Positions 4,948 through 21,685 of a DNA stretch of 64,000 nt are shown piece by piece. Position numbers and translations under genes: made by a program. Position 1 is the first letter of the stretch; each line of letters opens with the position of its first letter. The stretch spans positions 2,074,662 through 2,138,661 of the forward strand of contig OY759724.1 in assembly GCA_963662715.1 (NCBI GenBank). Reading direction: 5' to 3'. Origin of the DNA: Candidatus Omnitrophota bacterium. GTDB lineage: Bacteria > Omnitrophota > Gorgyraeia > Zapsychrales > JANLHA01. The notes beneath the pieces were generated by a model. That model did not search any database. It saw only the letters and a list, made by a program, of their open reading frames with translations, and was not told the origin of the DNA.

Positions 4948-7401
4948 TTGCCATGGGGAAGGCAGAAGGGTTTATTTATTTTCTCCATGCAGAATAATAC
5001 ATGTCAAAAAAAGACGCGAAAGCAGAAAGGGCTGGCCGTTTTCTGTTTGGCTCTGGCGCTGTTCGTTTTGTTCGCTCCCGTGTTGACCGGGAAAAAAATT
5101 TTATTCCCATCCGACCTGCTGCACACGATGATCTCCCCTTATGCTGAGGGACGGTCTGTTCATGTTTACAATCATTTTTTGAATGACATTGTCGTTCAGT
5201 ATTTCCCGTACAAAAAATTAACTCAAACAGCCCTGCTGCAAGGGCGATGGGCTTACTGGAATCCTCTCATCCTCGGCGGGTATCCGCAATATGCTTTAAC
5301 GATGGCGGGAAATTTTGACGTGACGAACCTTCTGCTGGTTTTTATCCCTGACCCGCTTCAGGCCTATTTCGTTCAGATTCTTGCTCTGCTGTTCATCGCC
5401 GGCATCTCCATGTTCGCCTTGCTTCAATATTACCAGCTGCCTGTAAATGCCAGCCTGCTTGGTGCCGTCTGTTACATGCTGAACAGCATGTTTATTTGCA
5501 CGATCTTTTTCCCCTGGATTATGGGGGCGTTCTGCTGGATGCCGGCGGCGGTTTTATTCCTGGATAAAAGCCTGAGGGATAGGTTATTGCGGGACCAGGC
5601 GCTTTGCGCTTTATTGACAGGCTGTGCCATGATGGCCGCTTCTGTTCAGACGATGAGTTTTATTTTTTTCCTGACGTTTGTGTTTTCTGTTATGTACGGG
5701 TATGTCTTCGCCCGGACTTTCAGAGATGTCGCAACACTGGCTAAGATTTATTTGACGATACATGTCTGGGCCATAGGCCTGACAGCGGTCATGTTGTTGC
5801 CTACATTAGAACTTTTCTATTTTGACGCTATCCAAGGCGGACAATGGGGCAACGTAGGGCAGGGGGCCATCCCCTTTGTCAAGAGGCTGTGGGGAGTCGC
5901 CGGCGTGATTTCCTTTGCTTTCCCGCAATTGGCCGGGAGTGTCAGGGCCTTTGATCTAACAAAATTAGCATCCTCAACGATGATGTTTTATAACGGTTTT
6001 ATCGGCTTTCTTCCGCTGCTTTTCGGATTGTTAAGTGTCCGGAATATCAAGAAAGACAAAAGAATCATCATTTATATGACCATCACGTTGTTCGGCTTGC
6101 TTGTGCCGCTTGCTTCGCCGTTCTTAAAATATGTTTATCACCGTTTTTTTATTATTTATATTTTCGGCATGTCTGTCCTCTCAGCCTTTGGGCTGACATA
6201 TTATTTGCAATGGCAGGATAAGGATAAGATGGCTTCTTTTTTAAGAAAGGTCACAGCCCTTTTTGTGCTGGTGGTGCTTGTTCTGCTGGCCGGTCATGTG
6301 TTCATTCAGCTTTTTTATGATGACGTTCTTAAGCACGGCCGGAAATTTGTCGAGGCTCATCTGCACATGGCTAACTTGCTTGCCGGCAATCGGGGCTGGT
6401 ATTTGGGGCGCGTGGAGAAACTCTTGCAGCATTTCAACTTTTTTGCTCCGGCCATTTTCATCCCTGTCGCCACCATGGCCTTGGGCCTGGGAGCGCTTTG
6501 GGCCCACAGGGCCAACCGGCTGAAATCATCATTCACAGGCCTCATTTTATTTATCACAGTTTTTCAGCTTTTGTTCTTTGCCTGGAGCTGGCTGCCCATG
6601 GTCAGCCCTCAGGAATACCCTTTATATCCTGAGACGCAGTCGGTTAATTTTTTAAAAAAAGATCAAGATTTATACCGGGTTTTGATTTATAACAATAATA
6701 CGAATAGGAAGCCTGTTTATTCTCCGAATATTCTTTCTGTCTACGGCATCGAAACGATCAACGGTTATGAAAGCGTTGAGCCTAAAACGATAAGATATTT
6801 GATTCAGGGTATGGACCCTGCGGTTTTAGGCTTGTGCAACGTCAAATATATTATCACGCATGATGATCCTCCTTTACGGAGTCCTCATTTGCATTTAACA
6901 TGGGAGGGGGAAGGCCTGCATATATATGAGAATGAACTGTTCGTCCCGCGGGCTTTTTTCCGGTGTCAGCATGAAGTCAGATCCGAGACAGATATCCTTC
7001 AGGGCATTCGGACAGGCCGGTTGGATACCAGCCGGAAAGTCTTTTTCAGTGAAGGGTTGGGCGGGCAGGCCGGGGGGCAGCAAGGGGAGAATTTGCGAAA
7101 GCCTTTGATAAAATTAAGGCAATATTCCCCGGAAGAAGTTTTATATGAGGTCGAGACACAGGTGCCGGGCTATTTCGTGCTCAGTCAATCCTGGTATCCG
7201 GGGTGGACCTGTTATCTCGACGGCCGGCAGGAAGAAGTCAGAAAAGCGAATTATTGTATGCTGGCTGTCCGCGTCCCGGCCGGGAAACATAAAGTCCGGT
7301 TTGTATTCCGTCCGCGTATTTTTTATATAGGCCTTGCTGTAAGCTCGATATTTTTTCTGTTGATTCTTATTTCATTAAGGAAGAAAAGACATGCCTCTTA
7401 A
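4948..7401 (+). CDS. YfhO-family membrane protein (GT-C fold, probable glycosyltransferase/glycan-modifying enzyme)
   Basis: 817-aa polytopic membrane protein with YfhO-like blocks NDIVVQYFPYKK and GRWAYWNPLILGGYPQYA. Start is uncertain (ATG at 4948 or 4987). Confidence 0.6.
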   Translation: MPWGRQKGLFIFSMQNNTCQKKTRKQKGLAVFCLALALFVLFAPVLTGKKILFPSDLLHTMISPYAEGRSVHVYNHFLNDIVVQYFPYKKLTQTALLQGRWAYWNPLILGGYPQYALTMAGNFDVTNLLLVFIPDPLQAYFVQILALLFIAGISMFALLQYYQLPVNASLLGAVCYMLNSMFICTIFFPWIMGAFCWMPAAVLFLDKSLRDRLLRDQALCALLTGCAMMAASVQTMSFIFFLTFVFSVMYGYVFARTFRDVATLAKIYLTIHVWAIGLTAVMLLPTLELFYFDAIQGGQWGNVGQGAIPFVKRLWGVAGVISFAFPQLAGSVRAFDLTKLASSTMMFYNGFIGFLPLLFGLLSVRNIKKDKRIIIYMTITLFGLLVPLASPFLKYVYHRFFIIYIFGMSVLSAFGLTYYLQWQDKDKMASFLRKVTALFVLVVLVLLAGHVFIQLFYDDVLKHGRKFVEAHLHMANLLAGNRGWYLGRVEKLLQHFNFFAPAIFIPVATMALGLGALWAHRANRLKSSFTGLILFITVFQLLFFAWSWLPMVSPQEYPLYPETQSVNFLKKDQDLYRVLIYNNNTNRKPVYSPNILSVYGIETINGYESVEPKTIRYLIQGMDPAVLGLCNVKYIITHDDPPLRSPHLHLTWEGEGLHIYENELFVPRAFFRCQHEVRSETDILQGIRTGRLDTSRKVFFSEGLGGQAGGQQGENLRKPLIKLRQYSPEEVLYEVETQVPGYFVLSQSWYPGWTCYLDGRQEEVRKANYCMLAVRVPAGKHKVRFVFRPRIFYIGLAVSSIFFLLILISLRKKRHAS

Positions 7402-9322
7402 AGAATTGCCATTCGTCAGTATTCTGATGGCCACCAAAGATGAAAATCCGCAGTATTTGAAAGAAGCGGTCGATAGCATCTGCCGACAAAGCTATACAAA
7501 CTGGGAGTTTCTTATCTTGGATGACGGGTCTTCGACCCAGGATAATTATGATTGGCTTGTGCACAGATCGGAAGAAGACAAGAGAATTCATGTTTTCCGT
7601 GGCCCGGGCGTGGGGCTGGCCCGGGCGCTTAATTTTCTTATTCCCAAGGCGCAGGGAGAGTTTTTTGCCAGGATGGACAGTGACGACAGGGCTTATCCCG
7701 AAAGGATTATGAAGGAAGTTGAATATTTGATGCGGTATCCCAACACGGTCTTGGTGGGATCCTGGATCAGAATCATTGACGGGACCGGAGAACCGATTCA
7801 TCAGTCATGCCCTGCCGATTATTTCAGGCCTCCCTGGTCCAGGGCCGCGCATTCCGGCTGGTGCGGCCGGTTGGATGCTTTGAAGGCTATCGGCGGATAT
7901 TCTCCGGATTTCCCGGTGAGCCAGGATTATGACTGCTGGCTCCGTTTGCAGCGGCAGGGACGGGTGGGGGTGGTTGAGGAAATCCTTTTGGATTATCGGT
8001 GGGGCCGGATTAGCTCCGAACGCTCGGTTGAGCAGTTACAGTATTTCTGGATTGCGAATCAGATACACCGGGATAACTCAGGGATTCCCAAGGTCAGTGT
8101 CTCTTCGGTTAAGGCCAGGTTAAAGAAATATGATTTTTGGTACGGCAGGATGTTTCAATCCCAGTCTATCAGCCAGCAGGCTATGCGGCTTTGGCAACAA
8201 GGGGATTACCGCCAGTCTTTCAAGGAATTCCTGGCGTCTTTGAGAGTATTCCCTTTCAGCCTCCGGACATGGCTTTGTTCATTCCTCGTTTTGATATTTC
8301 ATAAATATCCTGCCCATATGACGCAATTTTTAAAATTGCGGGTGCTTTTGCCTCGCATACTGTATTTGAATCCCAAGCCGCCGTCTGCGGCTGTCTGTCT
8401 GCATTTTTCTGAGAATGGGGGCCGGGGTGGTTATCGTCTGGCTCTCGTTATTCCTACGGCCGACCGCCGGCAGGTGCTTCATCGATTTTTAAAAAGCGTT
8501 GAACCGCAAAAAAACTGCGTCTCCCAGATTATTATTGTTGACGGGGGCAGGAAACCGGTGGAGGACCTTGTCCGGGAATTTTCCCAGTTGCCCATTGATT
8601 ATGTCCGGGCCCCTTACCCGTGTCTGACCAGGCAGAAAAATCAGGGGATTGAGCATCTCCGTCCGGACATCGATCTTGTATGTTTTTTTGATGATGATAT
8701 TATCCTGGAAGAAAATGCCTTGGATAACATGATCCGTTTCTGGAAGAGCAGCGGGCAGGAGGTCGGCGGCGCGGCGTTTAACATTATCAATGTGGTCAAA
8801 AGGAAAACCTCTTTCATGAAGCGGATTTTTTTGACAGGAAGTGAAGCCAAGGGCCGGATTATGCGTTCCGGTTACGGGGCGATGCTTTCCCCCGTGGATG
8901 ACAGTATCTTTACAGACTGGATTTTCGGCGGAGCCACTGTCTGGCGGCGGGATATTTTTTCGACATATAAATTCGACGAGTGGTTTGAAGGCTACGGTTA
9001 TGGGGAGGACCTGGATTTCAGTTACAACGTGGGTAAAAAATATAAACTAGCGGTCATCTCCGAAGCCCGTGTGCAGCATATCAAAGACAATACAGAAGGT
9101 ATTGATTATGTCCTTTTTGGGAAAATGCAGGTTGTTAACCGGTATTATATTGTCAGAAAGTTTAAGGAATTTTCCACGCTGCTGTTTTTGTGGTCGTCCA
9201 GCGGACAGATGTTGGAAAATTTATATATGTTTCTGTTCAGAAGAAACAAAACCTACTTCTCCAGGCTTTTAGGCAATCTGTCCGGATTATGGCATATTAT
9301 CGTTCAGCCTCCCCGCGTATGA
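7391..9322 (+). CDS. two-domain (tandem GT2) glycosyltransferase
   Basis: N-terminal GT2 domain (VSILMATKDE...LILDDGSS...MDSDD) and second GT2 domain (LALVIPTADRR...IIIVDGG...FFDDDI). AAGGAAG ribosome-binding site upstream. Overlaps the upstream gene by 11 nt. Confidence 0.8.
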   Translation: MPLKELPFVSILMATKDENPQYLKEAVDSICRQSYTNWEFLILDDGSSTQDNYDWLVHRSEEDKRIHVFRGPGVGLARALNFLIPKAQGEFFARMDSDDRAYPERIMKEVEYLMRYPNTVLVGSWIRIIDGTGEPIHQSCPADYFRPPWSRAAHSGWCGRLDALKAIGGYSPDFPVSQDYDCWLRLQRQGRVGVVEEILLDYRWGRISSERSVEQLQYFWIANQIHRDNSGIPKVSVSSVKARLKKYDFWYGRMFQSQSISQQAMRLWQQGDYRQSFKEFLASLRVFPFSLRTWLCSFLVLIFHKYPAHMTQFLKLRVLLPRILYLNPKPPSAAVCLHFSENGGRGGYRLALVIPTADRRQVLHRFLKSVEPQKNCVSQIIIVDGGRKPVEDLVREFSQLPIDYVRAPYPCLTRQKNQGIEHLRPDIDLVCFFDDDIILEENALDNMIRFWKSSGQEVGGAAFNIINVVKRKTSFMKRIFLTGSEAKGRIMRSGYGAMLSPVDDSIFTDWIFGGATVWRRDIFSTYKFDEWFEGYGYGEDLDFSYNVGKKYKLAVISEARVQHIKDNTEGIDYVLFGKMQVVNRYYIVRKFKEFSTLLFLWSSSGQMLENLYMFLFRRNKTYFSRLLGNLSGLWHIIVQPPRV

Positions 9323-9348
9323 ACACCGGGCTATTTATGAGATGATGT

Positions 9349-10473
9349 ATGAGTCGAGTTATCCTGTGTTTGCTACATCTTCCTCCACCGCACATCGGGC
9401 CGTCAGTCATCAATGAATCGGTCATCCAGAGCCTTTCTTTGAACCCGGAATTCGAATGTGATGTTTTCCCGATCAATACGTCGAATCATATACAGCAGAT
9501 CAACCGGTTTTCATTAAAGAAAGTTTCTGTCCTTTTCACAATGAGCTTTAAGCTGATCAGGAGGTTGCTGAACAGAAAGTATCATTTGGTTTATATGTCC
9601 CTGACGCCTACGGGAATCGGATTCTTAAAAGATTTTATCCTGGTGATGATCTTGAAAATGCGGGGTGTTTGCCGGCTTTACCATCTGCATGGCAAAGGGG
9701 TTCATGAGAAACAGAACGTATTCATGACATGGCTTTACCGCCTGTGTTTTAAAGGAAGTCATGTCATTCTGCTGTCGGAAAGCCTTTATCCGGATATCAA
9801 GTGTTATGTTCCTCGTGAGCAGGTTTCGGTCATCCCTAACGGCGTCCCCGAGGATATTGATGCGAAAGCCTGGGAGAAAATAAGAGAGCGGCGGAGACAG
9901 CCTCATGTCTTTCATGTCCTTTTTTTAGCGAACCTGGTGAGAAGCAAGGGGATCTTCACGGCGTTGGAAGCGGTGCGTCAACTGCAGCAGAAGGAGCTGA
10001 AGTTCCAATTTTCTGTTGTCGGTGCGGATTTTGATGTCACACAGGCCGAACTGGTCGAATGGGTGGAGCAAAATGACCTGCAGGAAACGGTTTTTGTTTT
10101 AGGATACAGAAGCGGGGCGCAAAAACGGGAGATATTTGAAAGAGCGGATATTTTTATTTATCCGACACAAAAGGATACTTTTCCTCTGGTCCTTTTGGAA
10201 GCTATGCAGTACGGTTTGCCGGTCGTTTCGACTTTTGAGGGGGCTATCCCTGATATTGTTGACGCCAATCAGACCGGGTTCTTGGTCGCTCCCGGATCAG
10301 CAACGGATCTGGCGGAGAAGATTGAATTTTTAATGAAGGATACGGAATGGCGGAGCAACATGGGGGAACAGGCACGCGCCAAATTCGTCCGGGAGTATAC
10401 ATTTTTTATCTTTGAACATCGGCTGAGCGCTGTTTTTAAAAAGGTGTCTGATGATCGTGCAGCGCTATCTTAA
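9349..10473 (+). CDS. glycosyltransferase family 1 (GT4)
   Basis: C-terminal GT1 signature YPTQKDTFPLVLLEAMQYGLPVVSTFEGAIPDIV...GFLV. Confidence 0.85.
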   Translation: MSRVILCLLHLPPPHIGPSVINESVIQSLSLNPEFECDVFPINTSNHIQQINRFSLKKVSVLFTMSFKLIRRLLNRKYHLVYMSLTPTGIGFLKDFILVMILKMRGVCRLYHLHGKGVHEKQNVFMTWLYRLCFKGSHVILLSESLYPDIKCYVPREQVSVIPNGVPEDIDAKAWEKIRERRRQPHVFHVLFLANLVRSKGIFTALEAVRQLQQKELKFQFSVVGADFDVTQAELVEWVEQNDLQETVFVLGYRSGAQKREIFERADIFIYPTQKDTFPLVLLEAMQYGLPVVSTFEGAIPDIVDANQTGFLVAPGSATDLAEKIEFLMKDTEWRSNMGEQARAKFVREYTFFIFEHRLSAVFKKVSDDRAALS

Positions 10474-10482
10474 GGAGATCTC

Positions 10483-12384
10483 ATGTGCGGCATAAACGGA
10501 TTAAGTGGATTCCCGGAAGGGGCCGCGCTTGTCCAGAATATGAACCAGGCTATCAGGCACCGGGGGCCTGATGCCGAAGGCGTGTGGCAGGACGAGTGTT
10601 TGACGCTTGGGCATCGGCGGCTTTCGATTATCGACCTGTCTCCGGAGGCCAATCAGCCGATGGCGAGAGACGGTTTTATTATCGTTTATAACGGAGAAAT
10701 ATATAATTTCCGGGAATTAAGGGAAGATTTAAAACGAAAAGGAGCCCTTTTTAAGACGCGTTCGGATACCGAAGTCGTCCTGGAACTTTTTCGCCATTAT
10801 CGCGAGGAAAGTTTTTCTAAACTTCAGGGGATGTTTGCCTTTGGCCTCTACGATTGTAAGAATAAAGAATTGTATCTGGTCCGGGACTATTTTGGCATTA
10901 AACCTCTTTTCTACTGGCATGCGCCGCCTGACCGTTTGGCTTTCTCCTCGGAATGTAAATCGTTCCTGAATCTTCCGGGGTTCCGGAAGGAATTGAACCC
11001 CGGGGTTCTCGTCTCCTGCCTGAATTATCTTTGGCCGGCAGGGGATGAGGCTATTTTTAAGGATGTTTTCAAGGTCCCTCCGGCCCATTACCTGAAAGTG
11101 CGTTTTCAGCGTAACGGGATCGCTTTGACCCAAAGACGGTATTGGGAATGGCCGGATCCCCTTTTTTCTCCGGGGCCGGAGCAAGAACATATAGAGGCCT
11201 TATCCGCCATTCTTGAGAAGAGCGTTGAGGAACATCTTGTTTCCGATGTGCCTGTCGGAGCTTTTTTAAGCGGGGGGTTAGATTCTTCATTAATAACGAC
11301 GTTGGCCCGGAGGCATAATCCGGATTTGTCGACTTATACCATATCGATCTCGCGGAAAGCCCAGCAGGTGGAACGCATGCCGCGGGACAACTTTTATGCC
11401 CAGGCGGTGGCTTCGTATTTGGGTGTCCGTCATACAGATATTCCCGTAGAGCCTTCTGTGATCGACGCTTTGCAGAATATGGTTGAAATTTTGGACGAGC
11501 CGATCGGGGATCCGGCCGCAATTAATACTTATCTTATTTGCCGGCTGGCCCGGGAAAGAGGGATAAAAGTGCTTTTGTCCGGCATGGGGGCCGATGAAAT
11601 ATTTGCGGGGTACAGGAGGCATTATGCCACGCTCCTAAGCCGAAAAATACAGCGGTGCCCGGGGTTCATGAAAAAGGCCGTCTCCCGGACCCTTTCCGTT
11701 CTGCCGGTTCGTCTGGGCTCTTACGGCCTGCGGCCCGTCCGCTGGGCCAAGCGTTTTTTTTCTTTTGTCGACATGCCTTTCGCAGAAGCCTATATGCGCA
11801 GCTATTCCTATTATGACCGAAACGAGCTGAGAGAAATCTTTAACGGGCGGTATGATGCCGAGATTGATGAGCTATTCGATCACCATGACCGGCTTTTTAA
11901 CGACGCCAGAAACTGGGATGAGATCAATAGGATGTGTTTTACAGATATTCATATGTTCATGACGGGTTTGAATTTGACGTATACCGACCGGGCTTCTATG
12001 GCGGCTTCGGTGGAAGTCCGGGTGCCTTTTATTGACAAGAATGTTATAGAATGGGGCATGTCTTTGCCGGGTTCCTATAAGATTAAAAATAATACTTCAA
12101 AATATATTTTAAAGAAAGTGGCCGAACGGGATTTGCCGAAACGTATTGTTTACCGCCCCAAAGCTTCTTTCGGCATGCCTTTACGGGCTTGGATGAATGG
12201 AGAACTTCGGGAATTAGTGGACGATGTTTTATCTTATGATAATATAAAAAAGCGCGGGATTTTAAATCCTGACCTGGTCAGGACAATTATCCGAAGAGAC
12301 CGGGAAGGGCGGGAGGACCATGCGTACAGGATTTATCAATTTTTAACTTTGGAATTATGGTTGCGGAAAATCACCGGGGTATAG
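10483..12384 (+). CDS. asnB: asparagine synthase (glutamine-hydrolysing) family amidotransferase, AsnB-like
   Basis: N-terminal MCGI Ntn-glutaminase start and PP-loop SGGLDSS. 633 aa. Sits inside the polysaccharide locus, as do sugar-amidating AsnB homologs. Confidence 0.85.
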   Translation: MCGINGLSGFPEGAALVQNMNQAIRHRGPDAEGVWQDECLTLGHRRLSIIDLSPEANQPMARDGFIIVYNGEIYNFRELREDLKRKGALFKTRSDTEVVLELFRHYREESFSKLQGMFAFGLYDCKNKELYLVRDYFGIKPLFYWHAPPDRLAFSSECKSFLNLPGFRKELNPGVLVSCLNYLWPAGDEAIFKDVFKVPPAHYLKVRFQRNGIALTQRRYWEWPDPLFSPGPEQEHIEALSAILEKSVEEHLVSDVPVGAFLSGGLDSSLITTLARRHNPDLSTYTISISRKAQQVERMPRDNFYAQAVASYLGVRHTDIPVEPSVIDALQNMVEILDEPIGDPAAINTYLICRLARERGIKVLLSGMGADEIFAGYRRHYATLLSRKIQRCPGFMKKAVSRTLSVLPVRLGSYGLRPVRWAKRFFSFVDMPFAEAYMRSYSYYDRNELREIFNGRYDAEIDELFDHHDRLFNDARNWDEINRMCFTDIHMFMTGLNLTYTDRASMAASVEVRVPFIDKNVIEWGMSLPGSYKIKNNTSKYILKKVAERDLPKRIVYRPKASFGMPLRAWMNGELRELVDDVLSYDNIKKRGILNPDLVRTIIRRDREGREDHAYRIYQFLTLELWLRKITGV

Positions 12385-12465
12385 GAAAACAGGGAATTTT
12401 TTGGCCCCCGAACGCCAGGAAGCTCAGTGTTCCTGAAAAATAATTGCGAGGAGGTCTTTTGAGAT

Positions 12466-14610
12466 ATGAGACAGATTGTTCAAAACTTGAAAACCGGAGA
12501 GCTGATTTTAGAGAATGTCCCGGCGCCTTCCGGGCAGCCCGGCAAGGTGCTTGTACAGAACAGATATTCTCTGATCAGTGCCGGAACCGAACGCTCAACG
12601 GTTCATACCGGGAAATTGTCTCTGCTGGGAAAGGCTAAGAAGAGGCCGGATCTTGTCAAACAGGTTATGGCAAACATCCGGAAGGAAGGCCTGGCCTCGA
12701 CCATTCACAAAGTCAAAAATAAACTCAATTGGCCTAAAGCTTTGGGCTACAGCAGCTGTGGCATTGTTCTGGCTTCGGACCGGCAGGGCCTTTTTCAGGC
12801 CGGTGATCTTGTGGCCTGCGCCGGGCAGGATTATGCCTCTCATGCTGAGGTTGTCTGCGTCCCGCAGAACCTTACGGTTAAAGTGCCGCCAGGCGTGTCT
12901 CCCGAAGAAGCCTGTTTCACGACAGTGGGCGCCATTGCTTTGCAGGGTGTGCGGCAGGCGGATGTCCGGATCGGGGAAAAGGTCTGTGTTATCGGGCTGG
13001 GGCTTATCGGGCAGCTCACCGCTCAGATTCTCAAAGCCAACGGCTGTTTTGTGTTCGGGATCGATGTCAGCGATCATGCGCTGAAGCTGGCTGAGGATTT
13101 GGGGATACAGGCAGCGGCGCATAGAAAGGCGGCGCATCTTCATCAGAGTCTGAATGCCTTTGCCGGTCCGCACGGTTTTGATAAAGTGATTGTCGCGGCT
13201 TCGTGCCAGAATAATGATCCGGTCCTTTTGGCCGCGGAAGTGCTCCGGAAGAAAGGCCTCATGGTCGTGGTGGGCAACGTCCCGGTGGATATCCCCCGGG
13301 AACCGCATTTTTATAAGAAGGAACTGGAACTGAAAATGGCGACCTCCTACGGGCCGGGCCGGTATGATCCTTCTTATGAGGAGCACGGCCTGGATTATCC
13401 TTACCCCTATGTCAGGTTCACGGAAAACAGAAACATGGAGGTTTTCCTGCATTTAATCGTCCAGGGTATGGTGCAGGTCAAGCCGCTTATAAGCCATGTT
13501 TTCGACTTCGCCGAGGCTTTAAAGGCTTATGACGTGATCATGGAACAAAAAGAGCCGTATACCGGCATACTTTTAAAATATGATGAAAACAGCAGGGCCG
13601 TTGAAACGCGGCAGGTTGCTGTTCATCATGATCCGGTCAAGGCCATCAATGTCGGGTTTATCGGGGCGGGGAGTTTTGCCCAGGGACATCTTCTGCCTGC
13701 CTTGAAGCAATATGATGTTTCTCTCGATACGGTTGTCACGACACAGGGGGTTTCCGCCAAAAACGTCGCGGATAAATTCGGCTTTCGTACGGCTTCCACG
13801 GAGGCAGAGGCCGTATGCTCGGCCAAGGATATCAATACAGTATTCATTGCCACCCGGCACAACACGCATGCCGGTTTTGTTTTGAGATGCCTGGCAGCCC
13901 GGAAGCATATTTTTGTGGAGAAACCTTTATGCTTAACGGAGGACGACCTTAAAGAGATCGCGTCCTTAGGCCCGGGAGGGCGTTTGTTTATGGTGGGGTA
14001 CAACCGCCGTTTTGCCCCGCTGAGTGTTTATGTGAAGGAACATTTGCCGTCTGATATGCGTCCGGTCATGATGAATTTCAGAGTTAATGCCGGATATATC
14101 CCGGCAGAATCCTGGATACAGGACAAAGAGGTCGGGGGCGGCCGCATCCTCGGAGAACTTTGCCATTTTGTGGATCTGATGCTGTTTTTTTCCGGATCTG
14201 TCCCGCGCCGGGTTTCGGCTTTCGGGGTGACCCCGAGGGGCAAATGGCAGAGGGATGACAATCTTGTCGTACAGTTGGAATTCCAGAATGGCTCTGTAGG
14301 GCAGATTTTGTATACAGCCATGGGGTCCTCCCGGATGCCCAAAGAACATCTGGAGATTTTTGCCGGAGGGAGTTCTTTTGTCATCCATGATTTCCGGGAA
14401 GCTAAAATATTTGTTCAAGGCCGCGAATCAAACGTGCGCCGGCCGGGGAAAGGGCATAAAGAGGAAATCGCCGCCTTCATATCATCCCTGCGGGACGGGA
14501 CGGAAAGCCCTGTCCCCTTCGAACATATCCTTTCGGTGTCGCTGACAACTTTTAAGATTATAAAAAGCCTGGAAACCCAGTCATCACAACTGGTCGATAT
14601 TCATGAATGA
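12466..14610 (+). CDS. bi-domain oxidoreductase (zinc-type alcohol dehydrogenase/MDR domain fused to Gfo/Idh/MocA domain)
   Basis: N-terminal GroES-like ADH fold and MDR Rossmann motif (VIGLGLIGQL). C-terminal Gfo/Idh/MocA motif (VGFIGAGSFAQGHLLPAL...EKPL). Confidence 0.8.
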   Translation: MRQIVQNLKTGELILENVPAPSGQPGKVLVQNRYSLISAGTERSTVHTGKLSLLGKAKKRPDLVKQVMANIRKEGLASTIHKVKNKLNWPKALGYSSCGIVLASDRQGLFQAGDLVACAGQDYASHAEVVCVPQNLTVKVPPGVSPEEACFTTVGAIALQGVRQADVRIGEKVCVIGLGLIGQLTAQILKANGCFVFGIDVSDHALKLAEDLGIQAAAHRKAAHLHQSLNAFAGPHGFDKVIVAASCQNNDPVLLAAEVLRKKGLMVVVGNVPVDIPREPHFYKKELELKMATSYGPGRYDPSYEEHGLDYPYPYVRFTENRNMEVFLHLIVQGMVQVKPLISHVFDFAEALKAYDVIMEQKEPYTGILLKYDENSRAVETRQVAVHHDPVKAINVGFIGAGSFAQGHLLPALKQYDVSLDTVVTTQGVSAKNVADKFGFRTASTEAEAVCSAKDINTVFIATRHNTHAGFVLRCLAARKHIFVEKPLCLTEDDLKEIASLGPGGRLFMVGYNRRFAPLSVYVKEHLPSDMRPVMMNFRVNAGYIPAESWIQDKEVGGGRILGELCHFVDLMLFFSGSVPRRVSAFGVTPRGKWQRDDNLVVQLEFQNGSVGQILYTAMGSSRMPKEHLEIFAGGSSFVIHDFREAKIFVQGRESNVRRPGKGHKEEIAAFISSLRDGTESPVPFEHILSVSLTTFKIIKSLETQSSQLVDIHE

Positions 14611-15805
14611 CATTTATGAGTCTTTGGTTCGTTTAAAGGATTATTGTCAAAAGGCCGGTTATCAAGGATGGGATCCTTTTGACGGGTTGAATTCTGCCTT
14701 TTTTCAGGCATCTTTTTTAAGAAATTCCCCTTTGTTTCGGATGTGCTGGATTCAGTTCTTTAAGCGAAGCCCGGTTAACCTGCGGTCGGTCTTTCGTGTC
14801 CCCAAAGGATTCAATCCTAAAGGCATAGCTTTGTTCTTGCGCGGTTATGTCTGTCTGGCCCGGGCTTTTCAGGATGAAGCGGATTTCGCGGTTATTCGTT
14901 CCCTCGCGGAGACATTGCGTAATTCTGTTTCGGCCGGATACTCCGGGTCTTGCTGGGGATATAACTTCGACTGGCAGTCCCGGGCTTTTTTTGTCCCCCG
15001 CGGAACCCCGAATGTGATCGTCTCGACTTTTGCGGGACATGCTTTACTGGATGTTTATGAACTTCAGGGGGAAAAAAAATTCATGCAGATGGCGGTGTCT
15101 GTCAGCGATTTTATCCGGCAGGATTTAAACCGCCAGGAGGATCAGCACGGCGGAATGTGTTTCTCCTACACGCCTTTAGATCACTCACGGATTTTCAACG
15201 CATCTCTTTTGGCGTCGGCTTTTTTAGCCCGGGTTTACCGTTTAACCCGCGACCCCGCGCTTTTTATTGACGCCCAGAGGTCCGTGTCTTTTTGCTGCCG
15301 GCAGCAAAATGCCGACGGCAGCTGGTTTTACGGTATGAACCCGAATCAGCGATGGATCGACAGCTTCCATACGGCGTATAATCTGGAGGCCCTTTTTCAA
15401 TATCAGGATTGGACGGGAGATGATCAGTTTCAGGGATTTTTTGAAAAGGGTTTTTCTTATTATGCGAAAAATTTCTTTACCGAAGAAGGGGTCCCTAAAT
15501 ATTATCACAATCGTATTTATCCTGTTGATGTTCATTCCACGGCCGGCCTGATTTCTCTTATGCTGATATCCGGCCGTCATGCCCGATATGCTGATCTGAA
15601 TAAAAATGTATTGAAGTGGACAATTCGGCATATGCAGTCTAAAATAGGATACTTTTATTACCAAATTCACAAATGGTGCAAGATTGACATCCCGTATATC
15701 CGCTGGACGCAGGCATGGATGTTTTATGCGTTGAGCTTTTACGTGTATTATCTGAAAAAGAACCGTTTGGCTTTTTCATCCGAAGGAGATTGTCAGGAAG
15801 AATGA
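14603..15805 (+). CDS. hypothetical protein (400 aa), possibly a polysaccharide-modifying enzyme; function unknown
   Basis: Clean ORF overlapping both neighbours (8 nt upstream, ATGA downstream). No signal peptide or TM. Trp/Tyr/Phe-rich. No family recognised by eye. Confidence 0.55.
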   Translation: MNDIYESLVRLKDYCQKAGYQGWDPFDGLNSAFFQASFLRNSPLFRMCWIQFFKRSPVNLRSVFRVPKGFNPKGIALFLRGYVCLARAFQDEADFAVIRSLAETLRNSVSAGYSGSCWGYNFDWQSRAFFVPRGTPNVIVSTFAGHALLDVYELQGEKKFMQMAVSVSDFIRQDLNRQEDQHGGMCFSYTPLDHSRIFNASLLASAFLARVYRLTRDPALFIDAQRSVSFCCRQQNADGSWFYGMNPNQRWIDSFHTAYNLEALFQYQDWTGDDQFQGFFEKGFSYYAKNFFTEEGVPKYYHNRIYPVDVHSTAGLISLMLISGRHARYADLNKNVLKWTIRHMQSKIGYFYYQIHKWCKIDIPYIRWTQAWMFYALSFYVYYLKKNRLAFSSEGDCQEE

Positions 15806-16911
15806 CACGAAGAAAAAAAGTCGTTTTTGTCGCCGGGGCCAGACCGAATTTCATGAAAATTGCCTGTCTGCTTAAGGAATGCCGCAAGTATAAGGCGATC
15901 CGGGCTATTGTTGTCCATTCCGGCCAGCATTATGATAACGAGATGTCGGAACAGTTTTTTAAAGATTTGGACATTGCTCCTCCCCGGTATTTTCTGGGGG
16001 TCGGGTCAGGGAGCCATGCCGAGCAGACAGGTCGTGTGATGGTGGCCTTCGAAAAGATCTGCCAAAAGGAGCGTCCCGATTACGTTGTGGTCGTCGGTGA
16101 TGTCAACTCCACGGTCGCGGCCTGCCTGGCCGCCAAGAAATGTCATATCCGCGTAGCCCATATCGAAGCAGGGTTGAGAAGTTTTGATATGGCGATGCCG
16201 GAAGAGATCAACCGCATGGTGACCGACAGTATTTCCGATGACCTCTTTGTCACGGAACAGAGCGGTGTCACCCATTTACGGAAAGAGGGGCATGCTGCGA
16301 AGAAAATTCATTTTGTCGGAAACACCATGATAGACAGCCTTATCCTGGCGATGAAAAAGATTCAACGTATGGACCCGCGGTCCTGGACGAGTTATCCTTT
16401 GCAGGAACAGTTGTCTTCTTATGGCTTGCTGACTCTGCACCGGCCCAGCAATGTTGACAGCAAAACGCAGCTTAAGCGATTGCTGGCTGTGGTTGATCAA
16501 GTGGCCCAGGAGATTCCCATCATATTCCCTGCGCATCCCCGGACCCGTAAAAGCATCAGAGAGTTTAAAGTTAAATTATCAAAGAATATTCATCTTACCC
16601 ATCCGTTAGGCTATTTGGAGTTTATCTTTTTATGCCAGAAAGCCGGATTCATTTTGACGGACAGCGGGGGGATTCAGGAAGAGACGACCTTTTTGAAAGT
16701 CCCCTGTTTCACTCTGAGGGCCAACACGGAACGTCCGGTCACTCTTGAAAAAGGGACGAACATCCTTGTCGGAAATAACATAGAGCAAATTCCCCGCCTC
16801 GTTCATCAGGTCCTCCGCGGTCAGTCCCGGGCGGGCCAGACGCCCCCTTTATGGGACGGGAGGGCCTCTCAGCGGATCATAAAAATTTTGGTGCGGAAAT
16901 TAATGATATGA
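15802..16911 (+). CDS. wecB: UDP-N-acetylglucosamine 2-epimerase (non-hydrolysing)
   Basis: ATG at 15802 shares ATGA with the upstream stop. Conserved blocks VAGARPNFMKIA, HSGQHYD, HIEAGLRSFD, FILTDSGGIQEE. Confidence 0.9.
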   Translation: MTRRKKVVFVAGARPNFMKIACLLKECRKYKAIRAIVVHSGQHYDNEMSEQFFKDLDIAPPRYFLGVGSGSHAEQTGRVMVAFEKICQKERPDYVVVVGDVNSTVAACLAAKKCHIRVAHIEAGLRSFDMAMPEEINRMVTDSISDDLFVTEQSGVTHLRKEGHAAKKIHFVGNTMIDSLILAMKKIQRMDPRSWTSYPLQEQLSSYGLLTLHRPSNVDSKTQLKRLLAVVDQVAQEIPIIFPAHPRTRKSIREFKVKLSKNIHLTHPLGYLEFIFLCQKAGFILTDSGGIQEETTFLKVPCFTLRANTERPVTLEKGTNILVGNNIEQIPRLVHQVLRGQSRAGQTPPLWDGRASQRIIKILVRKLMI

Positions 16912-17681
16912 TAAGAGAGAGACGGATTAATATCCTGGACTGCCCCATTGATAACCTGAGCCGTAAAGAAACGGTGGCTCTGATTGAAGATATGATCCGT
17001 CAACGGCTCTCTTGCCAGCATGTCGTTATTAATGTTGACAAGCTTTTAAAAGTGCGGCGGGACCGGAAACTTCATGATATTATTTCTCAGTGCGACATCA
17101 TTAATGCTGACGGCATGCCGATTGTCTGGGTTTCCCGTTGGCTGGGCCAGCCTTTGCCGGAAAGGGTGGCCGGTATTGATCTGATGCATGATCTGGTGTC
17201 GTTGTCTGCGCAAAAGAACTATAGGATCTTTTTCCTGGGAGCCCGGCAGGATGTTGTGCAAGCCGTTGTCGGGAAATATCGGATGCTGTACCCGGACATT
17301 AACATTGTGGGGTTCCGGAACGGATACTGGCCGGAATCGGAAGAGGAAGACGTGGTTAACGAAATCAGAGCCGCGGCCCCGGATATCCTTTTTGTCGCGA
17401 TGAGCTCCCCGAAAAAGGAAATGTTTTTAAACAGATACCGGCAGAAACTTCGTGTCCCTTTTGTTATGGGCGTCGGAGGCAGCTTTGACGTGGTGGCCGG
17501 ATATACGCAACGGGCTCCCCTTTGGATGCAACGGCGTGGTCTGGAATGGCTGTTCCGTCTTATGCAGGAACCGAAACGCATGTGGAGACGATATTTGATC
17601 GGTAACACGCAATTTGTTTTTATCGTGGCCCGCGAGATGTTTGGTCCCAAGGCCAGAAGAAACAGCCCGCAGCATCAGTAA
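16908..17681 (+). CDS. WecB/TagA/CpsF family glycosyltransferase (GT26, N-acetylmannosaminyl(uronic acid) transferase-like)
   Basis: GT26 blocks GIDLMHDLV, YRIFFLGA, FVAMSSPKKE, GVGGSFD, RRGLEWLFRL. ATGA overlap with the wecB stop. Confidence 0.85.
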   Translation: MIRERRINILDCPIDNLSRKETVALIEDMIRQRLSCQHVVINVDKLLKVRRDRKLHDIISQCDIINADGMPIVWVSRWLGQPLPERVAGIDLMHDLVSLSAQKNYRIFFLGARQDVVQAVVGKYRMLYPDINIVGFRNGYWPESEEEDVVNEIRAAAPDILFVAMSSPKKEMFLNRYRQKLRVPFVMGVGGSFDVVAGYTQRAPLWMQRRGLEWLFRLMQEPKRMWRRYLIGNTQFVFIVAREMFGPKARRNSPQHQ

Positions 17682-17740
17682 GAATTTTATCCTGTTGCGC
17701 CCACGCGCTATTTTATTATCCCTCTACAATATAAAATAAG

Positions 17741-17810
17741 CCTGCCGTTCCTTCCCGTTCCGGATGGGGAAAAACTCCGGAACAGGAAAAATTATTGGCA
17801 GGTGTTTTGA
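17741..17810 (+). terminator. nested GC-rich hairpin followed by a U-rich tract after the wecG-like gene
   Basis: CCTGCC..GTTCCGGA-loop-TCCGGAAC..GGCAGG then TGTTTTG. The U-tract is weak. Confidence 0.3.
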
Positions 17811-17833
17811 AAAATGCTGTATGGATGTATAAT
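17807..17833 (+). promoter_or_regulatory. candidate sigma70 promoter for the sugar-transferase operon
   Basis: TTGAAA -35 at 17807..17812, TATAAT -10 at 17828..17833 (15-nt spacer, TG just upstream) in an AT-rich 230-nt intergenic region. Confidence 0.3.
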
Positions 17834-17913: not shown

Positions 17914-19323
17914 ATGATCACTTCCATCAGAAAAATCTATCCTCTTTATATCTTCATTGATTTTGTCTTGATCTGGAGCAGTTTTATCATTCCGTATTTT
18001 TTAAAATACAACGCCATTACGGATATTTTCCGGGTGATCACGCTGCCCAACCTTGATCAGTATATTTTTATCTTCGTTCTTTGGACGATATTTATCGTCA
18101 GTTTTTTTCAGGGAAAAGGTCTTTACGCCACGGACCGGAGCCTGCCCATCCCCAAAGAAATGGCGCGGGTGGCCTTAAATCTTTTTTATGTCAGCGTGAT
18201 CATGGCCGCCATCATATTTTTCGCTCAGTATAAATTTTTTTCCCGGAAGGTCTTCCTGGAGAACTTTTTGTCTTTATGTTTTTTGCTGGGAGGGTGGAGG
18301 GTCATCAAGAGGCTTATTCTGCGCAAGCTGATCGCCGGCGGCTTTCATAATATTAATGTCTTGATTGTCGGGGCCGGAAAAGTCGGGGGCGTCGTTCTGG
18401 AGGAAATCCGGCAGAATCCGCAGTGGGGATTCCATATTGTCGGATTCCTGGACGATCGTAAAGAGGAAATCGACGGATTCCCTGTCCTCGGGAAGGTGCG
18501 GGACTTTCCCTCGGTGGCCCGGAAACACTTTGTCGATGAAATTGTTGTGACAATCCCGTCTGTGCGGGAACTTATCGGGGATATTATCAAGAAGGCCAAA
18601 ACCATGCATCTCGGGGTGAGAATCGTTCCGGAGAATTTTGAAGGGCCGCTGTCTTTTATCGAAATCAATTATATGGGCATCATTCCCTTGCTGACATATA
18701 AACAGCGGAAACATCATCCTACGGAGTTTGCCCTTAAACGGCTGTTTGATATCATGCTGTCATTCGTGTTTATTGTTTTGTCATCCCCTTTATTTGTTGT
18801 TATCTCCCTTTTGATTAAATGGGATTCTCCGGGGCCGGTTTTTTATGTCCAACAGAGGGTCGGATTAAAAGGGAAGCGTTTTAATCTGTTTAAATTCCGT
18901 TCCATGTTCGATGGCGCTGAGCAAATGAAGTCCAGACTGTTAAATAATAATGAAGTGAAAGACGGTGTTATTTTTAAAATGAAAAAGGATCCCCGGGTCA
19001 CCCGTTTCGGGAAGTTGTTGCGGAAGTACAGCCTGGATGAATTGCCGCAGCTTTTTAATGTTTTTAAAGGGGACATGAGCCTGGTCGGCCCCCGGCCGCC
19101 GACCCCGGATGAGGTTGAACAATATCAACAGCAGGATTTGCAGCGCTTGTCCATCCGGCCGGGTGTTACGTGCATTTCTCAGGTCCGGGGCCGAAGCGAC
19201 CTGTCGTTTAAAAGATGGGTTAAATGGGATTTGTGGTATATCAATAACTGGTCTTTTGGTTTAGATATGCAGATTCTGCTGTGGACCGTGCCCGCCGTCA
19301 TAAAAGGAAAAGGAGCTTACTGA
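17914..19323 (+). CDS. exopolysaccharide/O-antigen initiating polyprenyl-phosphate glycosyl-1-phosphate transferase (bacterial sugar transferase family, WbaP/EpsB-like)
   Basis: N-terminal TM helices, NAD-binding-like middle domain, C-terminal sugar-transferase blocks KRLFDI, SPGPVFYVQQRVG, FNLFKFRSM, DELPQLFNVFKGDMSLVGPRP. Confidence 0.9.
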   Translation: MITSIRKIYPLYIFIDFVLIWSSFIIPYFLKYNAITDIFRVITLPNLDQYIFIFVLWTIFIVSFFQGKGLYATDRSLPIPKEMARVALNLFYVSVIMAAIIFFAQYKFFSRKVFLENFLSLCFLLGGWRVIKRLILRKLIAGGFHNINVLIVGAGKVGGVVLEEIRQNPQWGFHIVGFLDDRKEEIDGFPVLGKVRDFPSVARKHFVDEIVVTIPSVRELIGDIIKKAKTMHLGVRIVPENFEGPLSFIEINYMGIIPLLTYKQRKHHPTEFALKRLFDIMLSFVFIVLSSPLFVVISLLIKWDSPGPVFYVQQRVGLKGKRFNLFKFRSMFDGAEQMKSRLLNNNEVKDGVIFKMKKDPRVTRFGKLLRKYSLDELPQLFNVFKGDMSLVGPRPPTPDEVEQYQQQDLQRLSIRPGVTCISQVRGRSDLSFKRWVKWDLWYINNWSFGLDMQILLWTVPAVIKGKGAY

Positions 19324-19335
19324 TGCTGGAAAGGC

Positions 19336-20637
19336 GTGGACAGGTCAATGGCCGGAAATATTAATGTCTCTGCCATCATCCGTTTCTTGCTGTTCGGCCT
19401 TATTGTCTGCCTGCCTTATAGCAAAGCTATTATTGAGACATGTGTCATTCTTTCCCTGGTGCTCTGGTTCTCAGTGCGCCTGAAGCTTCTCGTTCATCCC
19501 AAAGGCCCTGACCGGCAGGGGGGGGCTTCCCGGAGCTGGGGTGATGTTATAAAACCTCCTCCAACACCCCTCAACACAGCGATTTTGTTTTTTGTCATCA
19601 TTTGTTTGTGTTCTGCCGTTTTCAGCATTAATCCCGCGAAATCTTTCCATGGTTTTATCACAAAAACGCTGGAATGGTTTGCCGTATTTTATCTCATGGT
19701 CGGGGTCTTTACGACCAAGAGACAGCTGGCCACGGCGGTTGTCCTTTATCTTGCGACATCATGCGTGACGTGTTTGGACGGCATCGTGCAATTTTACTGG
19801 TTAGGGCATGACGTGATCCGTCAGCGTTTGTTGATCCGGGACGGAGCCACAGCTGCTTTCTCTCATCCCAACAGCCTTGCCGGTTATCTGACCATTGTCG
19901 TGCCCTGCGTATTTTCCCTGTGTTTTTCCCCGGGGCTAAAAGTAAGGCTTCGTCTGGCGTTAATGTCTTTGTGGAGTATTATGAGCTGGGCCTTGATCCT
20001 GACCTTCTCCCGGTCGGGCATTTTCGCCGGTCTGGCGGGGGTCCTGTTTTTTATTTGCCATAAGAGCAAGCCCGTATTTATCTGGATATGTATTCTCGCC
20101 GTTTTGCTCGCCGGAAGTTTTTTGCGTTTTGCGCCTCATGAGGTCCGCAAGCGTACGCGTACCCGGCCGGAAATTGTTTCGGATGATGTGAAATGGCGGT
20201 GGCATCTCTGGCAGGACAGCTTGGCTTTGGTCCGGGAGAGGCCGTGGGTGGGCCACGGATTGAATACTTATATGGATCTGATACATCGCAAAAGACCTGA
20301 TGCGGCTCCGGTTTATGCACATAACTGTTACGTTCAAATCATGGTGGAAACCGGCGTTCTGGGCCTGGCAGGTTTCCTGTGGATCCTGTTCGCCCTTGGA
20401 AAAGCCGTATTCGGAAGCCTGTCAAGCCCGACGGACCGTGTTGCCGACCGGCGGCTATCAGGCCTTATTCTAGGTTTGTATTCAGGGGTGGTCGCGTTTT
20501 TGGTCCACAGCTTTTTTGAAGTCCATTTTTATTCTTTGCAACTATCAGTTTACTTTTGGCTTATTGCCGGTATACTAATCTCTGGAATCTCTATGCAGAC
20601 GCATTATAAGAAATGTGAAGAAAATATTATTATTTGA
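19336..20637 (+). CDS. O-antigen ligase / Wzy-like membrane protein (paralog 2)
   Basis: Polytopic. Wzy_C motif HGLNTYMDL...[21 protein letters not shown]. Confidence 0.75.
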
Positions 20638-20653
20638 AGAGGGAGGCTCATCC

Positions 20654-21667
20654 ATGAAAAAGAGAAAAGTGGCCCTGATCACCGGTATTACGGGACAGGA
20701 TGGCGCTTATTTGTCGGAATTATTGCTTAAAAAGAAATATGATGTTTATGGACTGATCAGACGGTCCAGCACGTTCAATACAACACGCATTGATCATCTC
20801 TATCAGGATCCTCATGAAAAGGATGTTCAATTGCGGCTGCTTTACGGGGATCTCAATGACGCGAGTTCTCTGAACCGGATTATCAGGACTATAAAACCGG
20901 ACGAGATATATAATCTTGGAGCGCAGAGTCATGTCAAGGTCAGTTTTGAGATCCCGGAATACACGGGAGAGATTGTCGGGCTGGGGACGACGCGTCTGCT
21001 GGAAGCCATACGGGATTCAGGTATTAAAGCGAAATTTTATCAGGCTTCAAGCAGTGAAATGTTTGGTAAAGTTCTCGAGATCCCTCAATCTGAAAAGACC
21101 CCGTTTTATCCCCGCAGCCCTTATGCGGCGGCGAAAGTCTACTCTTATTGGATGACCGTCAATTACCGGGAAGCTTATAATATTTTCGCCTGCAACGGTA
21201 TTCTTTTTAACCATGAATCTCCCCGGAGAGGGGAGACCTTCGTGACCCGGAAAATTACCATGGCCCTGGCCCGGATTAAACACGGAGTGCAGGATAAGCT
21301 TTTTTTAGGGAATCTGGACGCTAAAAGAGACTGGGGTTTTGCCGGGGATTATGTTGAAGCCATGTGGTTGATGTTGCAGCAGAAGACCCCGGCTGATTAT
21401 GTCATCGCGACCGGCCAGACGCATTCTGTGCGGGAATTTCTTTTAGAAGCGTTCTCCTATTTAAAGATGGATTGGAAAAAACATGTCAGGATCGATAAGC
21501 GCTATTTCCGGCCAACGGAAGTAGATCTCCTCATAGGCAACAGTTCAAAAGCCCGCAGAAAATTGAAATGGAAACCCCGAGTGAACTTTAAGCAGTTAGT
21601 CCGTATGATGGTTGATGCTGACCTGGAACTAGTTGAACGTCAGCTTTACGGCCAGAAGAAATCTTAA
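20654..21667 (+). CDS. gmd: GDP-mannose 4,6-dehydratase (canonical paralog)
   Basis: GGAGG ribosome-binding site then ATG at 20654. Blocks [58 protein letters not shown]. Confidence 0.95.
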
Positions 21668-21685
21668 GATCCTTTAGAGATCATC

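Follow-up and report, generated by a model that had tools for sequence, protein, structure and literature searches.

N-acetyl-L-gulosaminuronic acid (L-GulNAcA) and N-acetyl-L-galactosaminuronic acid (L-GalNAcA) are constituents of Pseudomonas O-antigens, of the cholera biofilm matrix and of the chief virulence polysaccharide of Ralstonia, and the enzymes of their biosynthesis are not yet defined. The Vibrio polysaccharide (VPS) of Vibrio cholerae contains L-GulNAcA, which differs from N-acetyl-D-mannosaminuronic acid (D-ManNAcA) at C5 only. Here we describe a gene for a 400-residue protein (14603..15805, + strand) in a 64-kb stretch of DNA from a Candidatus Omnitrophota bacterium (contig OY759724.1), referred to below as the window, to which all coordinates apply. 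As judged by homology the protein belongs to the family of VpsJ from the VPS pathway. Its gene is preceded by those for an AsnB-family glutamine-dependent amidotransferase (10483..12384) and a bi-domain oxidoreductase (12466..14610), and is followed by those for a non-hydrolysing UDP-GlcNAc 2-epimerase in the WecB or VpsA role (15802..16911) and a VpsK-like GT26 glycosyltransferase of the WecG/TagA/CpsF family (16908..17681), all on the + strand. We estimate a probability of roughly 0.55 that the window holds part of a lipid-carrier polysaccharide pathway with VPS-like early steps, in which a VpsJ-type C5 epimerisation is joined by a redox-dependent second change and by amidation; the probable product of the unit of AsnB, oxidoreductase and 400-residue protein is an amidated amino-uronic acid of a rare, L-configured kind.

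Dooda et al. (mBio, July 2026; PMC13463779) found sequence searches on VpsJ to be uninformative and its predicted structure to be like those of 2-epimerases. Deletion of vpsJ led to the accumulation of only the unmodified bactoprenyl-PP-Glc-ManNAcA disaccharide (PP, diphosphate), and the VpsJ step was placed after the GT26 enzyme VpsK and before the additions of glycine by VpsH and of acetyl by VpsG. VpsJ was proposed to represent a new class of epimerase, which inverts C5 and converts D-ManNAcA to L-GulNAcA (PMC13463779).

The window can be read as a variant of the VpsJ system in which VpsH is replaced by AsnB and a bi-domain oxidoreductase and no VpsB was seen. It shares with VPS the full-length homology of the 400-residue protein to VpsJ (36-39% identity) and a six-hairpin fold closest to 2-epimerases, together with a GT26 gene near the VpsJ-like gene, a WecB, an initiating transferase of the WcaJ type, a GT4 glycosyltransferase in the VpsI position and a carboxylate-amidating enzyme. 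It departs from VPS in that neither VpsB nor WecC was seen in the window, and in that AsnB, which draws ammonia from glutamine, replaces the CapK-like VpsH, which uses glycine. The oxidoreductase gene directly upstream of the VpsJ-like gene has no counterpart in VPS, and the order VpsJ-like, WecB, GT26 contrasts with the adjacent vpsJ and vpsK of VPS, where vpsA lies far upstream. The two systems also belong to different host lineages.

A second type of locus bears on the oxidoreductase. In Pseudomonas aeruginosa PA14, ZbdP has the same two-domain architecture and is co-transcribed with the heparinase II/III-like HepP, described there as a virulence factor and a heparinase of the secreted type and not as a biosynthetic enzyme (PMC5732420). 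The ZbdP-HepP pair (PMC5732420) and the corresponding pair of the Ralstonia eps locus resemble the window in that a helical toroid or barrel is encoded directly after a two-domain oxidoreductase within a WecB-bearing surface-polysaccharide locus; they differ in that the partner has a Hepar_II_III or alginate-lyase fold and in that their loci carry WecC. The translational coupling of WecB and GT26 recalls the WecB-WecC-WecG set of enterobacterial common antigen, from which the window differs by the lack of WecC and by a WcaJ/WbaP-type initiator instead of WecA; an initiator of this type makes a hexose-PP-lipid the probable acceptor, as it is in VPS. By its architecture and setting (GATase and Asn_synthase domains, Cys2, a glycan locus), the AsnB may be likened to WbpS of P. 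aeruginosa O6 and WbtH of Francisella. These two enzymes are thought to make hexosaminuronamides, and their loci encode an obvious UDP-sugar 6-dehydrogenase, whereas the window shows none.

The 400-residue protein and the VpsJ family

The sequence-only reading of this DNA could place the 400-residue protein in no family, and Pfam, NCBIfam and PDB sequence searches gave no above-threshold match. A search of plasmids and chromids recovered homologs in Vibrio, Burkholderia, Pseudoalteromonas, haloarchaea and Methanosarcina. Genes at the locus of the Vibrio homolog are arranged as in the V. cholerae vps-I operon, and a search seeded with this homolog returned relatives named 'VpsJ'. One of these (P0399) is encoded in a locus (L092) that reads VpsU, VpsA through VpsK, RbmA, RbmB, RbmC, in agreement with the published vps/rbm organization. 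The 400-residue protein is 39.5% identical to the VpsJ of L092 over 370 aa (E 2e-83) and 36% identical to an NCBI-named VpsJ (E 3e-76), while the window GT26 is 45% identical to the VpsK of L092 over 238 aa (E 9e-79). The GT4 enzyme encoded at 9349..10473 is weakly similar to the VpsI of that locus (24% identity over 327 aa). On these alignments we assign the 400-residue protein to the VpsJ family, so that it is no longer without a recognizable one.

An exhaustive profile search returned 3,973 cluster representatives at E <= 0.001. At the stricter E <= 1e-30 at least 1,313 clusters at 50% identity remain, from both Bacteria and Archaea, so that the family of the proposed VpsJ epimerase is very large; it matched no Pfam or NCBIfam model. 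Nearly all homologs are stand-alone proteins of ~390-400 aa. Two exceptions, P0210 (an Asn_synthase C-terminus joined to a VpsJ-like protein) and P0209 (a GT4 C-terminus joined to one), are truncated gene calls that may be natural fusions or read-through artefacts, and were counted as evidence of adjacency only. The public names of homologs are wrong or inconsistent, and include delta-aminolevulinic acid dehydratase, aspartate-semialdehyde dehydrogenase, antibiotic ABC transporter permease, GH88 and YesR.

Below threshold, Pfam gave matches to the glycoside hydrolase families GH88 (20.1 bits, E 3.5e-4, cut-off 26.6) and GH127 (15.5 bits, cut-off 24.9), and a PDB profile search gave GH76 (E 1e-3 over ~95 residues) and the N-acylglucosamine 2-epimerase (AGE)/YihS type (E 0.2 over 44 residues). 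Judged by family cut-off score and catalytic motif the protein is not placed in GH88, GH105 or GH76, and the Asp-Asp catalytic pair of GH76 was not seen in it by eye. Alignment with E. coli YihS, of the AGE superfamily, by hhalign was restricted to one hairpin at a probability of 30%; sequence profiles do not place the protein in that superfamily, and the likeness is confined to the fold. The heparinase II/III, C5-epimerase and alginate-lyase families had been put forward as candidates, and none of the corresponding Pfam models (Hepar_II_III_N/C, C5-epim_C and Alginate_lyase) matched the protein.

The structure prediction and fold search proposed for the product of 14603..15805 were more informative. 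An AlphaFold2 model built from 73 homologs is a confident (alpha/alpha)6 barrel (pLDDT 94.2, pTM 0.93), for which the top Foldseek matches are glucose and cellobiose 2-epimerases (E 5e-9, TM about 0.6); the closest folds are those of AGE and cellobiose 2-epimerases, and also of GH76, GH88 and GH105 enzymes. Identity to the AGE and cellobiose 2-epimerases (3WKF, 8H1L, 1FP3) is 9-15%, with no Pfam match, and the protein is a separate family inside the six-hairpin superfamily. AGE and cellobiose 2-epimerases need a free reducing end, and a lipid-linked glycan has none. A role as a free-sugar 2-epimerase of the AGE kind was set aside on the grounds that the substrates lack a free reducing end and that WecB is already present. 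The sequence contains no signal peptide, and residues 2-17 are modelled confidently as an N-terminal helix, placing the protein in the cytoplasm, away from the finished polymer; for the same lack of a signal peptide, a role in the periplasm as a hydrolase or lyase that trims the polymer was set aside.

In the alignment of the VpsJ family, which spans Archaea and Bacteria, twenty polar or aromatic positions never vary, including D24, D27, K54, N59, R61, K73, Y189, N199, Y243, H256, D309, H311, R367 and W368. K73, N199, H256, D309/H311 and R367/W368 fall at, or adjacent to, the N-terminal ends of alternate helices that begin near residues 72, 198, 254, 310 and 366 and that we take, in the model, to be the inner helices of the barrel. 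Six-hairpin enzymes usually carry their active site at the starts of alternate barrel helices.

Conserved neighbourhood, amide-forming enzymes and the oxidoreductase slot

The context sample comprised 80 fetched loci (the most similar ones), the window and three further loci, with all open reading frames (ORFs) clustered; counts are given over 82 loci, and neighbours within six genes of the VpsJ-like gene were considered. GT26 is present in 65/82 loci (the next gene in 49, and first or second downstream in 62), the bi-domain oxidoreductase in 52 (directly preceding gene in 36), a phosphoglycosyltransferase in 49 (2-6 genes downstream), WecB in 46 (1-2 genes downstream), GT4 in 31 (most commonly three genes upstream) and AsnB in 22 (two genes upstream in 13). 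A scavenging GH88-like hydratase acting on 2-acetamidoglucal released by WecB was set aside, as linkage to GT26 exceeds that to WecB and the vpsJ mutant stalls at the disaccharide. The closest syntenic loci belong to metagenome-assembled genomes (MAGs) of Omnitrophota and Planctomycetales, and the order AsnB, oxidoreductase, 400-residue protein is shared by these and by Bacteroidota. The sequence-only reading had treated these three genes as a module, to be doubted if homologous loci lacked it, and had asked after co-occurrence with the oxidoreductase; both ideas are borne out by the 52 loci with an oxidoreductase and by the recurrence of the same three-gene order.

In loci that lack GT26, a gene for a DUF354 (GT-B-like) protein usually comes next after the VpsJ-like gene, and a trio of DUF354, WecB and VpsJ-like genes occurs in Haloferax and Methanosarcina; DUF354 may be an archaeal counterpart of the GT26 transferase. 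The archaeal members of the family (27-28% identity) are encoded on Haloferax volcanii pHV4 (L087, 1325-11245) and on a Methanosarcina sp. Kolksee plasmid (L090, 7783-11179), and the Haloferax locus also has a full Wbp-like set of dehydrogenase, Gfo/Idh/MocA oxidoreductase, aminotransferase and acyltransferase. In Vibrio and Burkholderia the pair of VpsJ-like protein and GT26 is found together with both WecB and WecC. The window WecB (Epimerase_2, E 2e-106; TIGR00236 322 bits, cut-off 210) is 44-50% identical to the GT26-adjacent WecB proteins of most Bacteroidota loci and 31% identical to E. coli-type WecB, which is found in WecC-bearing loci; WecB proteins seem to fall into two clades according to whether the locus has WecC.

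The AsnB of the window begins with MCGI and retains the Cys2 nucleophile. It has both features of the AsnB type, an N-terminal Cys glutaminase (GATase_7, E 3e-40) and an Asn_synthase adenylating domain (E 7e-96), and scores 473 bits against TIGR01536 (cut-off 267), with the PEP-CTERM subtype TIGR03108 below cut-off (484 against 817). Among the 57 loci with >= 8 kb on both flanks, an amide-forming enzyme is encoded in 44, AsnB-like in 20 and VpsH-like in 26, with both in only two (Fisher p 7e-5). The oxidoreductase is present in 18 of the 20 AsnB loci, and the VpsH-like genes are negatively associated with it (p 9e-5). VpsH adds glycine in VPS; we infer that the AsnB of the window amidates a sugar carboxylate. 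A carboxylate-bearing, amidated sugar is a plausible product, in keeping with an earlier suggestion of an oxidised and amidated ManNAc-derived sugar, for which the 44 loci speak and the want of a UDP-ManNAc 6-dehydrogenase in the window does not.

The oxidoreductase is a fusion of an alcohol dehydrogenase-like part (ADH_zinc_N, residues 181-299) to a Gfo/Idh/MocA part (GFO_IDH_MocA, residues 394-500, plus C-terminal domains), and Pfam and NCBIfam agree on the domain composition first read for it and for AsnB, WecB and GT26. Alignment with E. coli Tdh shows other residues at the positions of the Cys, His and Glu zinc ligands (Ala for Cys in LISAGTE; Tyr-Ser for His-Glu in GYSS/GYSSCG) and a deletion of the four-Cys structural-zinc lobe; a ~31-residue insertion follows the GTE motif (domain at 12466-13650). 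The same losses are present in the homologs from Ralstonia (L086), Streptomyces (L094) and Muriicola, with L003 among the loci that show them. By these alignments the N-terminal half is a medium-chain dehydrogenase/reductase (MDR)-like domain and not a zinc alcohol dehydrogenase, and 'zinc-binding dehydrogenase', as ZbdP was named in print, seems to be a misnomer.

The window oxidoreductase and the homolog in the Ralstonia eps operon align over their full length at 40% identity, and the Sphingobium plasmid homolog is likewise at 40%. In Ralstonia solanacearum eps (L086, 14001-17974) and on a Sphingobium plasmid (L093, 8001-11946), the oxidoreductase is followed by a Hepar_II_III protein, near WecB and WecC; on a plasmid of Streptomyces sp. 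KN37 (L094, 6038-12157) the order is AsnB, oxidoreductase, alginate-lyase-family protein. Oxidoreductase and partner lie within 0-8 bp of each other in Pseudomonas, Ralstonia and Streptomyces. Profile alignment of the VpsJ family with the Ralstonia heparinase II/III-like protein by hhalign revealed no similarity (probability 0.1%). The slot after the oxidoreductase is thus filled by either a VpsJ-like barrel or an unrelated lyase-fold toroid. The chemistry of the heparinase II/III and alginate-lyase folds is abstraction of the uronate C5 proton, and because proteins of these folds fill the same slot, a C5-directed role for VpsJ gains support.

The glycans of P. aeruginosa O10/O19 and of 'Pseudomonas solanacearum' (Ralstonia) contain L-GalNAcA, and the zbdP/hepP genes match only PA14-type strains and one P. 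aeruginosa record labelled 'serotype O10'. By our own stereochemical reasoning, L-GalNAcA is the 3,5-epimer of D-ManNAcA. Because VPS, which has no oxidoreductase, contains an epimer altered at C5 only, while the L-GalNAcA glycans differ at C3 and C5, the comparison weakly suggests that the oxidoreductase provides the extra inversion at C3.

Proposed pathway and competing explanations

In the pathway that we propose, an initiating transferase of the WcaJ/VpsL type would load a hexose phosphate onto undecaprenyl phosphate, WecB would produce UDP-ManNAc, whose oxidation to the uronic acid may be carried out by an unseen dehydrogenase, and the GT26 would attach the ManNAc-type sugar as the second residue. 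The 400-residue protein, in the cytoplasm, would then invert C5 of the ManNAcA-type residue on the lipid-linked disaccharide (D-manno to L-gulo), in a pocket of invariant His, Tyr, Asp, Arg, Lys and Asn. The bi-domain oxidoreductase would bring about a redox-dependent second change, most likely the inversion of a ring carbon such as C3 to give the L-galacto configuration, and AsnB would turn the C6 carboxylate into an amide, as the counterpart of the glycine addition by VpsH. By analogy with V. cholerae, where VpsJ acts on the lipid-linked disaccharide after VpsK, the 400-residue protein most likely acts after WecB and GT26, and the module probably does not feed wecB-wecG as had been supposed. 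The accompanying idea that this protein is an undescribed step of the epimerase type was largely right, in that it agrees with the independent proposal for VpsJ in 2026.

Several points weigh against this pathway. The epimerase activity of VpsJ is itself only a proposal drawn from mutant intermediates, for which the authors ask for direct biochemistry (PMC13463779), and because epimers have the same mass these intermediates cannot show epimerisation. Our comparison was made with VpsJ orthologs picked by synteny and not with the V. cholerae sequence itself, and the window WecB is only 31% identical to VpsA (L092, 357-1475). No homolog of the UDP-ManNAc 6-dehydrogenase WecC or of UDP-glucose dehydrogenase was found in the window, where the cluster is cut at the left edge, and a close WecC lies within 10 kb in only 6/57 loci; since no dehydrogenase of the WecC/VpsB type was seen, the carboxylate that C5 acidity and AsnB both call for is unproven. 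Its source may be an enzyme whose gene lies upstream or in another place, or the oxidoreductase itself, or 4-keto chemistry may take its place. The C3 inversion is read from three or four cases, which are correlated. The loci, mostly from Bacteroidota, are related by phylogeny and were pre-selected by similarity, so that the Fisher p-values overstate independence and are indicative only.

Much of the same evidence can be arranged differently. The trio might work on the nucleotide sugar before transfer, with the oxidoreductase oxidising UDP-ManNAc or UDP-GlcNAc (C6 included), the 400-residue protein epimerising or otherwise modifying the product, AsnB amidating it and the GT26 transferring a finished uronamide. 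The position of the translationally coupled trio upstream of wecB-wecG fits such a scheme, as does the lack of WecC in the window and within 10 kb in 38/41 of the oxidoreductase-containing loci, which would be expected if the oxidoreductase performed the oxidation; the AsnB-like amidotransferases of O-antigen loci (WbpS, WbtH) are also usually drawn at the nucleotide-sugar level. We nevertheless consider it unlikely. Gene order does not dictate the order of reactions, and V. cholerae VpsK transfers its sugar without VpsJ, the vpsJ mutant piling up lipid-linked disaccharide. Ralstonia, Sphingobium and three Bacteroidota loci have both WecC and the oxidoreductase, and the MDR-like domain of the latter has no alcohol-dehydrogenase zinc site; on both counts its reading as a plain substitute for WecC is less likely.

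The stall of the vpsJ mutant at the unmodified disaccharide is equally expected if the 400-residue protein is an essential non-catalytic adaptor or another enzyme, such as a hydratase or hydrolase, that enables the next steps on the lipid-linked disaccharide, the L-configuration arising elsewhere. The nearest folds include GH76, GH88 and GH105 besides the epimerases, and the weak GH88 match in Pfam points the same way. An adaptor is hard to reconcile with twenty invariant residues, several of them at alternate helix starts, which argue for catalysis, and with the occupation of the same slot by C5-acting uronate lyase-fold proteins in several lineages; a hydrolase is disfavoured by the unseen GH76 pair and the GH88 score below cut-off, and the finished polymer would not be met by a protein that has no signal peptide. 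Such a role is, in our judgement, distinctly improbable. We assign the smallest chance of the alternatives weighed here to a split reaction like that of GDP-mannose 3,5-epimerase, in which the oxidoreductase would oxidise C4 of a neutral ManNAc, the barrel would epimerise C5 (perhaps also C3) via an enolate and the oxidoreductase would re-reduce the product, with no uronic acid formed and a different substrate for AsnB. This would accommodate the lack of WecC in the window, the presence of two redox domains in a single protein, which suit a cycle of oxidation and reduction, and the finding of AsnB in just 20/57 loci; the speculation of Dooda et al. that C4 oxidation could acidify H5 (PMC13463779) is also in its favour. 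It has to contend with the carboxylate-requiring AsnB or VpsH-like enzymes in 44/57 loci, and with the VpsJ-like sequences, which do not separate by whether their locus has the oxidoreductase (identity is 57-60% both inside each group and across the two) and have all invariant residues in common; a single substrate chemistry is thereby suggested, and the substrate in VPS is a uronate.

The pathway with C5 epimerisation on the lipid carrier admits a broader and more tentative form, which we regard as possible but doubtful. AsnB, oxidoreductase and helical-barrel protein would constitute a portable device that converts lipid-linked D-ManNAc(A) to L-hexosaminuronic acids or their amides (L-GulNAcA, L-GalNAcA and the amide L-GalNAcAN), with VpsJ-family and Hepar_II_III/alginate-lyase-fold proteins as non-homologous, interchangeable C5-epimerases and the oxidoreductase responsible for the second (C3) inversion. 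If true, this would account for the L-GalNAcA and L-GulNAcA of Ralstonia EPS I and P. aeruginosa O10/O19 and of many glycans from Bacteroidota, Actinobacteria and archaea, and the 'HepP heparinase' would be re-read as a biosynthetic enzyme. The recurrent triad of AsnB, oxidoreductase and barrel or toroid offers a testable route to these acids and amides, and the conserved pairing of the VpsJ-like protein with the oxidoreductase and with one or another amide-forming enzyme gives a concrete, testable scheme for a class of sugar-tailoring systems with many orthologs in non-pathogens that are available for biochemistry.

Layout of the surrounding gene cluster

An ORF and Pfam survey of the window, with domain calls by Pfam and NCBIfam, delineates a single dense polysaccharide gene cluster at 4948-23155 on the + strand. 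The genes of 10483..17681 had been described as one overlapping chain, and this holds from 12466 onward: the oxidoreductase and 400-residue genes share an 8-nt overlap, ATGAATGA, and ATGA overlaps join the 400-residue gene to wecB and wecB to the GT26 gene (Glyco_tran_WecG, E 6e-66). AsnB is instead separated from the oxidoreductase by an 81-nt spacer (12385-12465), which has a GAGGAGG ribosome-binding site shortly 5' of the ATG and no terminator-like element on the + strand, and the genes likely form one operon despite it. As homologs in other phyla keep the same order, the ORFs of 400-714 aa are not chance.

Upstream, an 817-aa YfhO-like membrane protein (4948-7401) overlaps by 11 nt a 643-aa glycosyltransferase with two GT2 domains (7391..9322, + strand; Glycos_transf_2 at 10-143, Glyco_tranf_2_3 at 350-452), which is 73-75% identical to its counterparts in the syntenic loci L001, L004 and L005. 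A 26-nt gap separates it from the GT4 gene in the VpsI position (9349..10473, + strand; Glycos_transf_1, E 7e-37), which ends 9 nt before AsnB. Further upstream are the first of two GDP-mannose 4,6-dehydratase paralogs (3699-4739; GDP_Man_Dehyd; E 2e-123 and 5e-145 for the pair) and a 528-aa protein with only a weak Wzy_C match (1935-3521). The ORF at 4..558 (+ strand) is the C-terminal half of a GT4 enzyme, matching Glycos_transf_1 over profile positions 20-171 only, and this fragment shows that the cluster extends past the left edge of the window, where WecC, Wzx or export genes could lie; no Wzx/MOP flippase or Wza/Wzc export gene was recognizable in the part of the cluster within the window.

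Downstream of the GT26 gene, a 232-nt gap precedes the initiating polyprenyl-phosphate hexose-1-phosphate transferase in the VpsL role (17914..19323, + strand; Bac_transf and CoA_binding_3; TIGR03025 425 bits, cut-off 296). The cluster ends, by Pfam, with a Wzy_C membrane protein (19336-20637), the second GDP-mannose 4,6-dehydratase (20615-21667; TIGR01472 543 bits) and a second Wzy_C protein (21686-23155), all on the + strand; this gene order (19336..23155) is repeated in L001, L004 and L005. The two dehydratase paralogs suggest that GDP-6-deoxyhexose residues are present in the same glycan. The housekeeping genes pgk and tpi come next in the window, and further housekeeping features lie beyond them, namely tRNA-Met(CAT) and tRNA-Val(CAC) (48049-48254) and a bacterial class A RNase P RNA (49480-49904; 164 bits).

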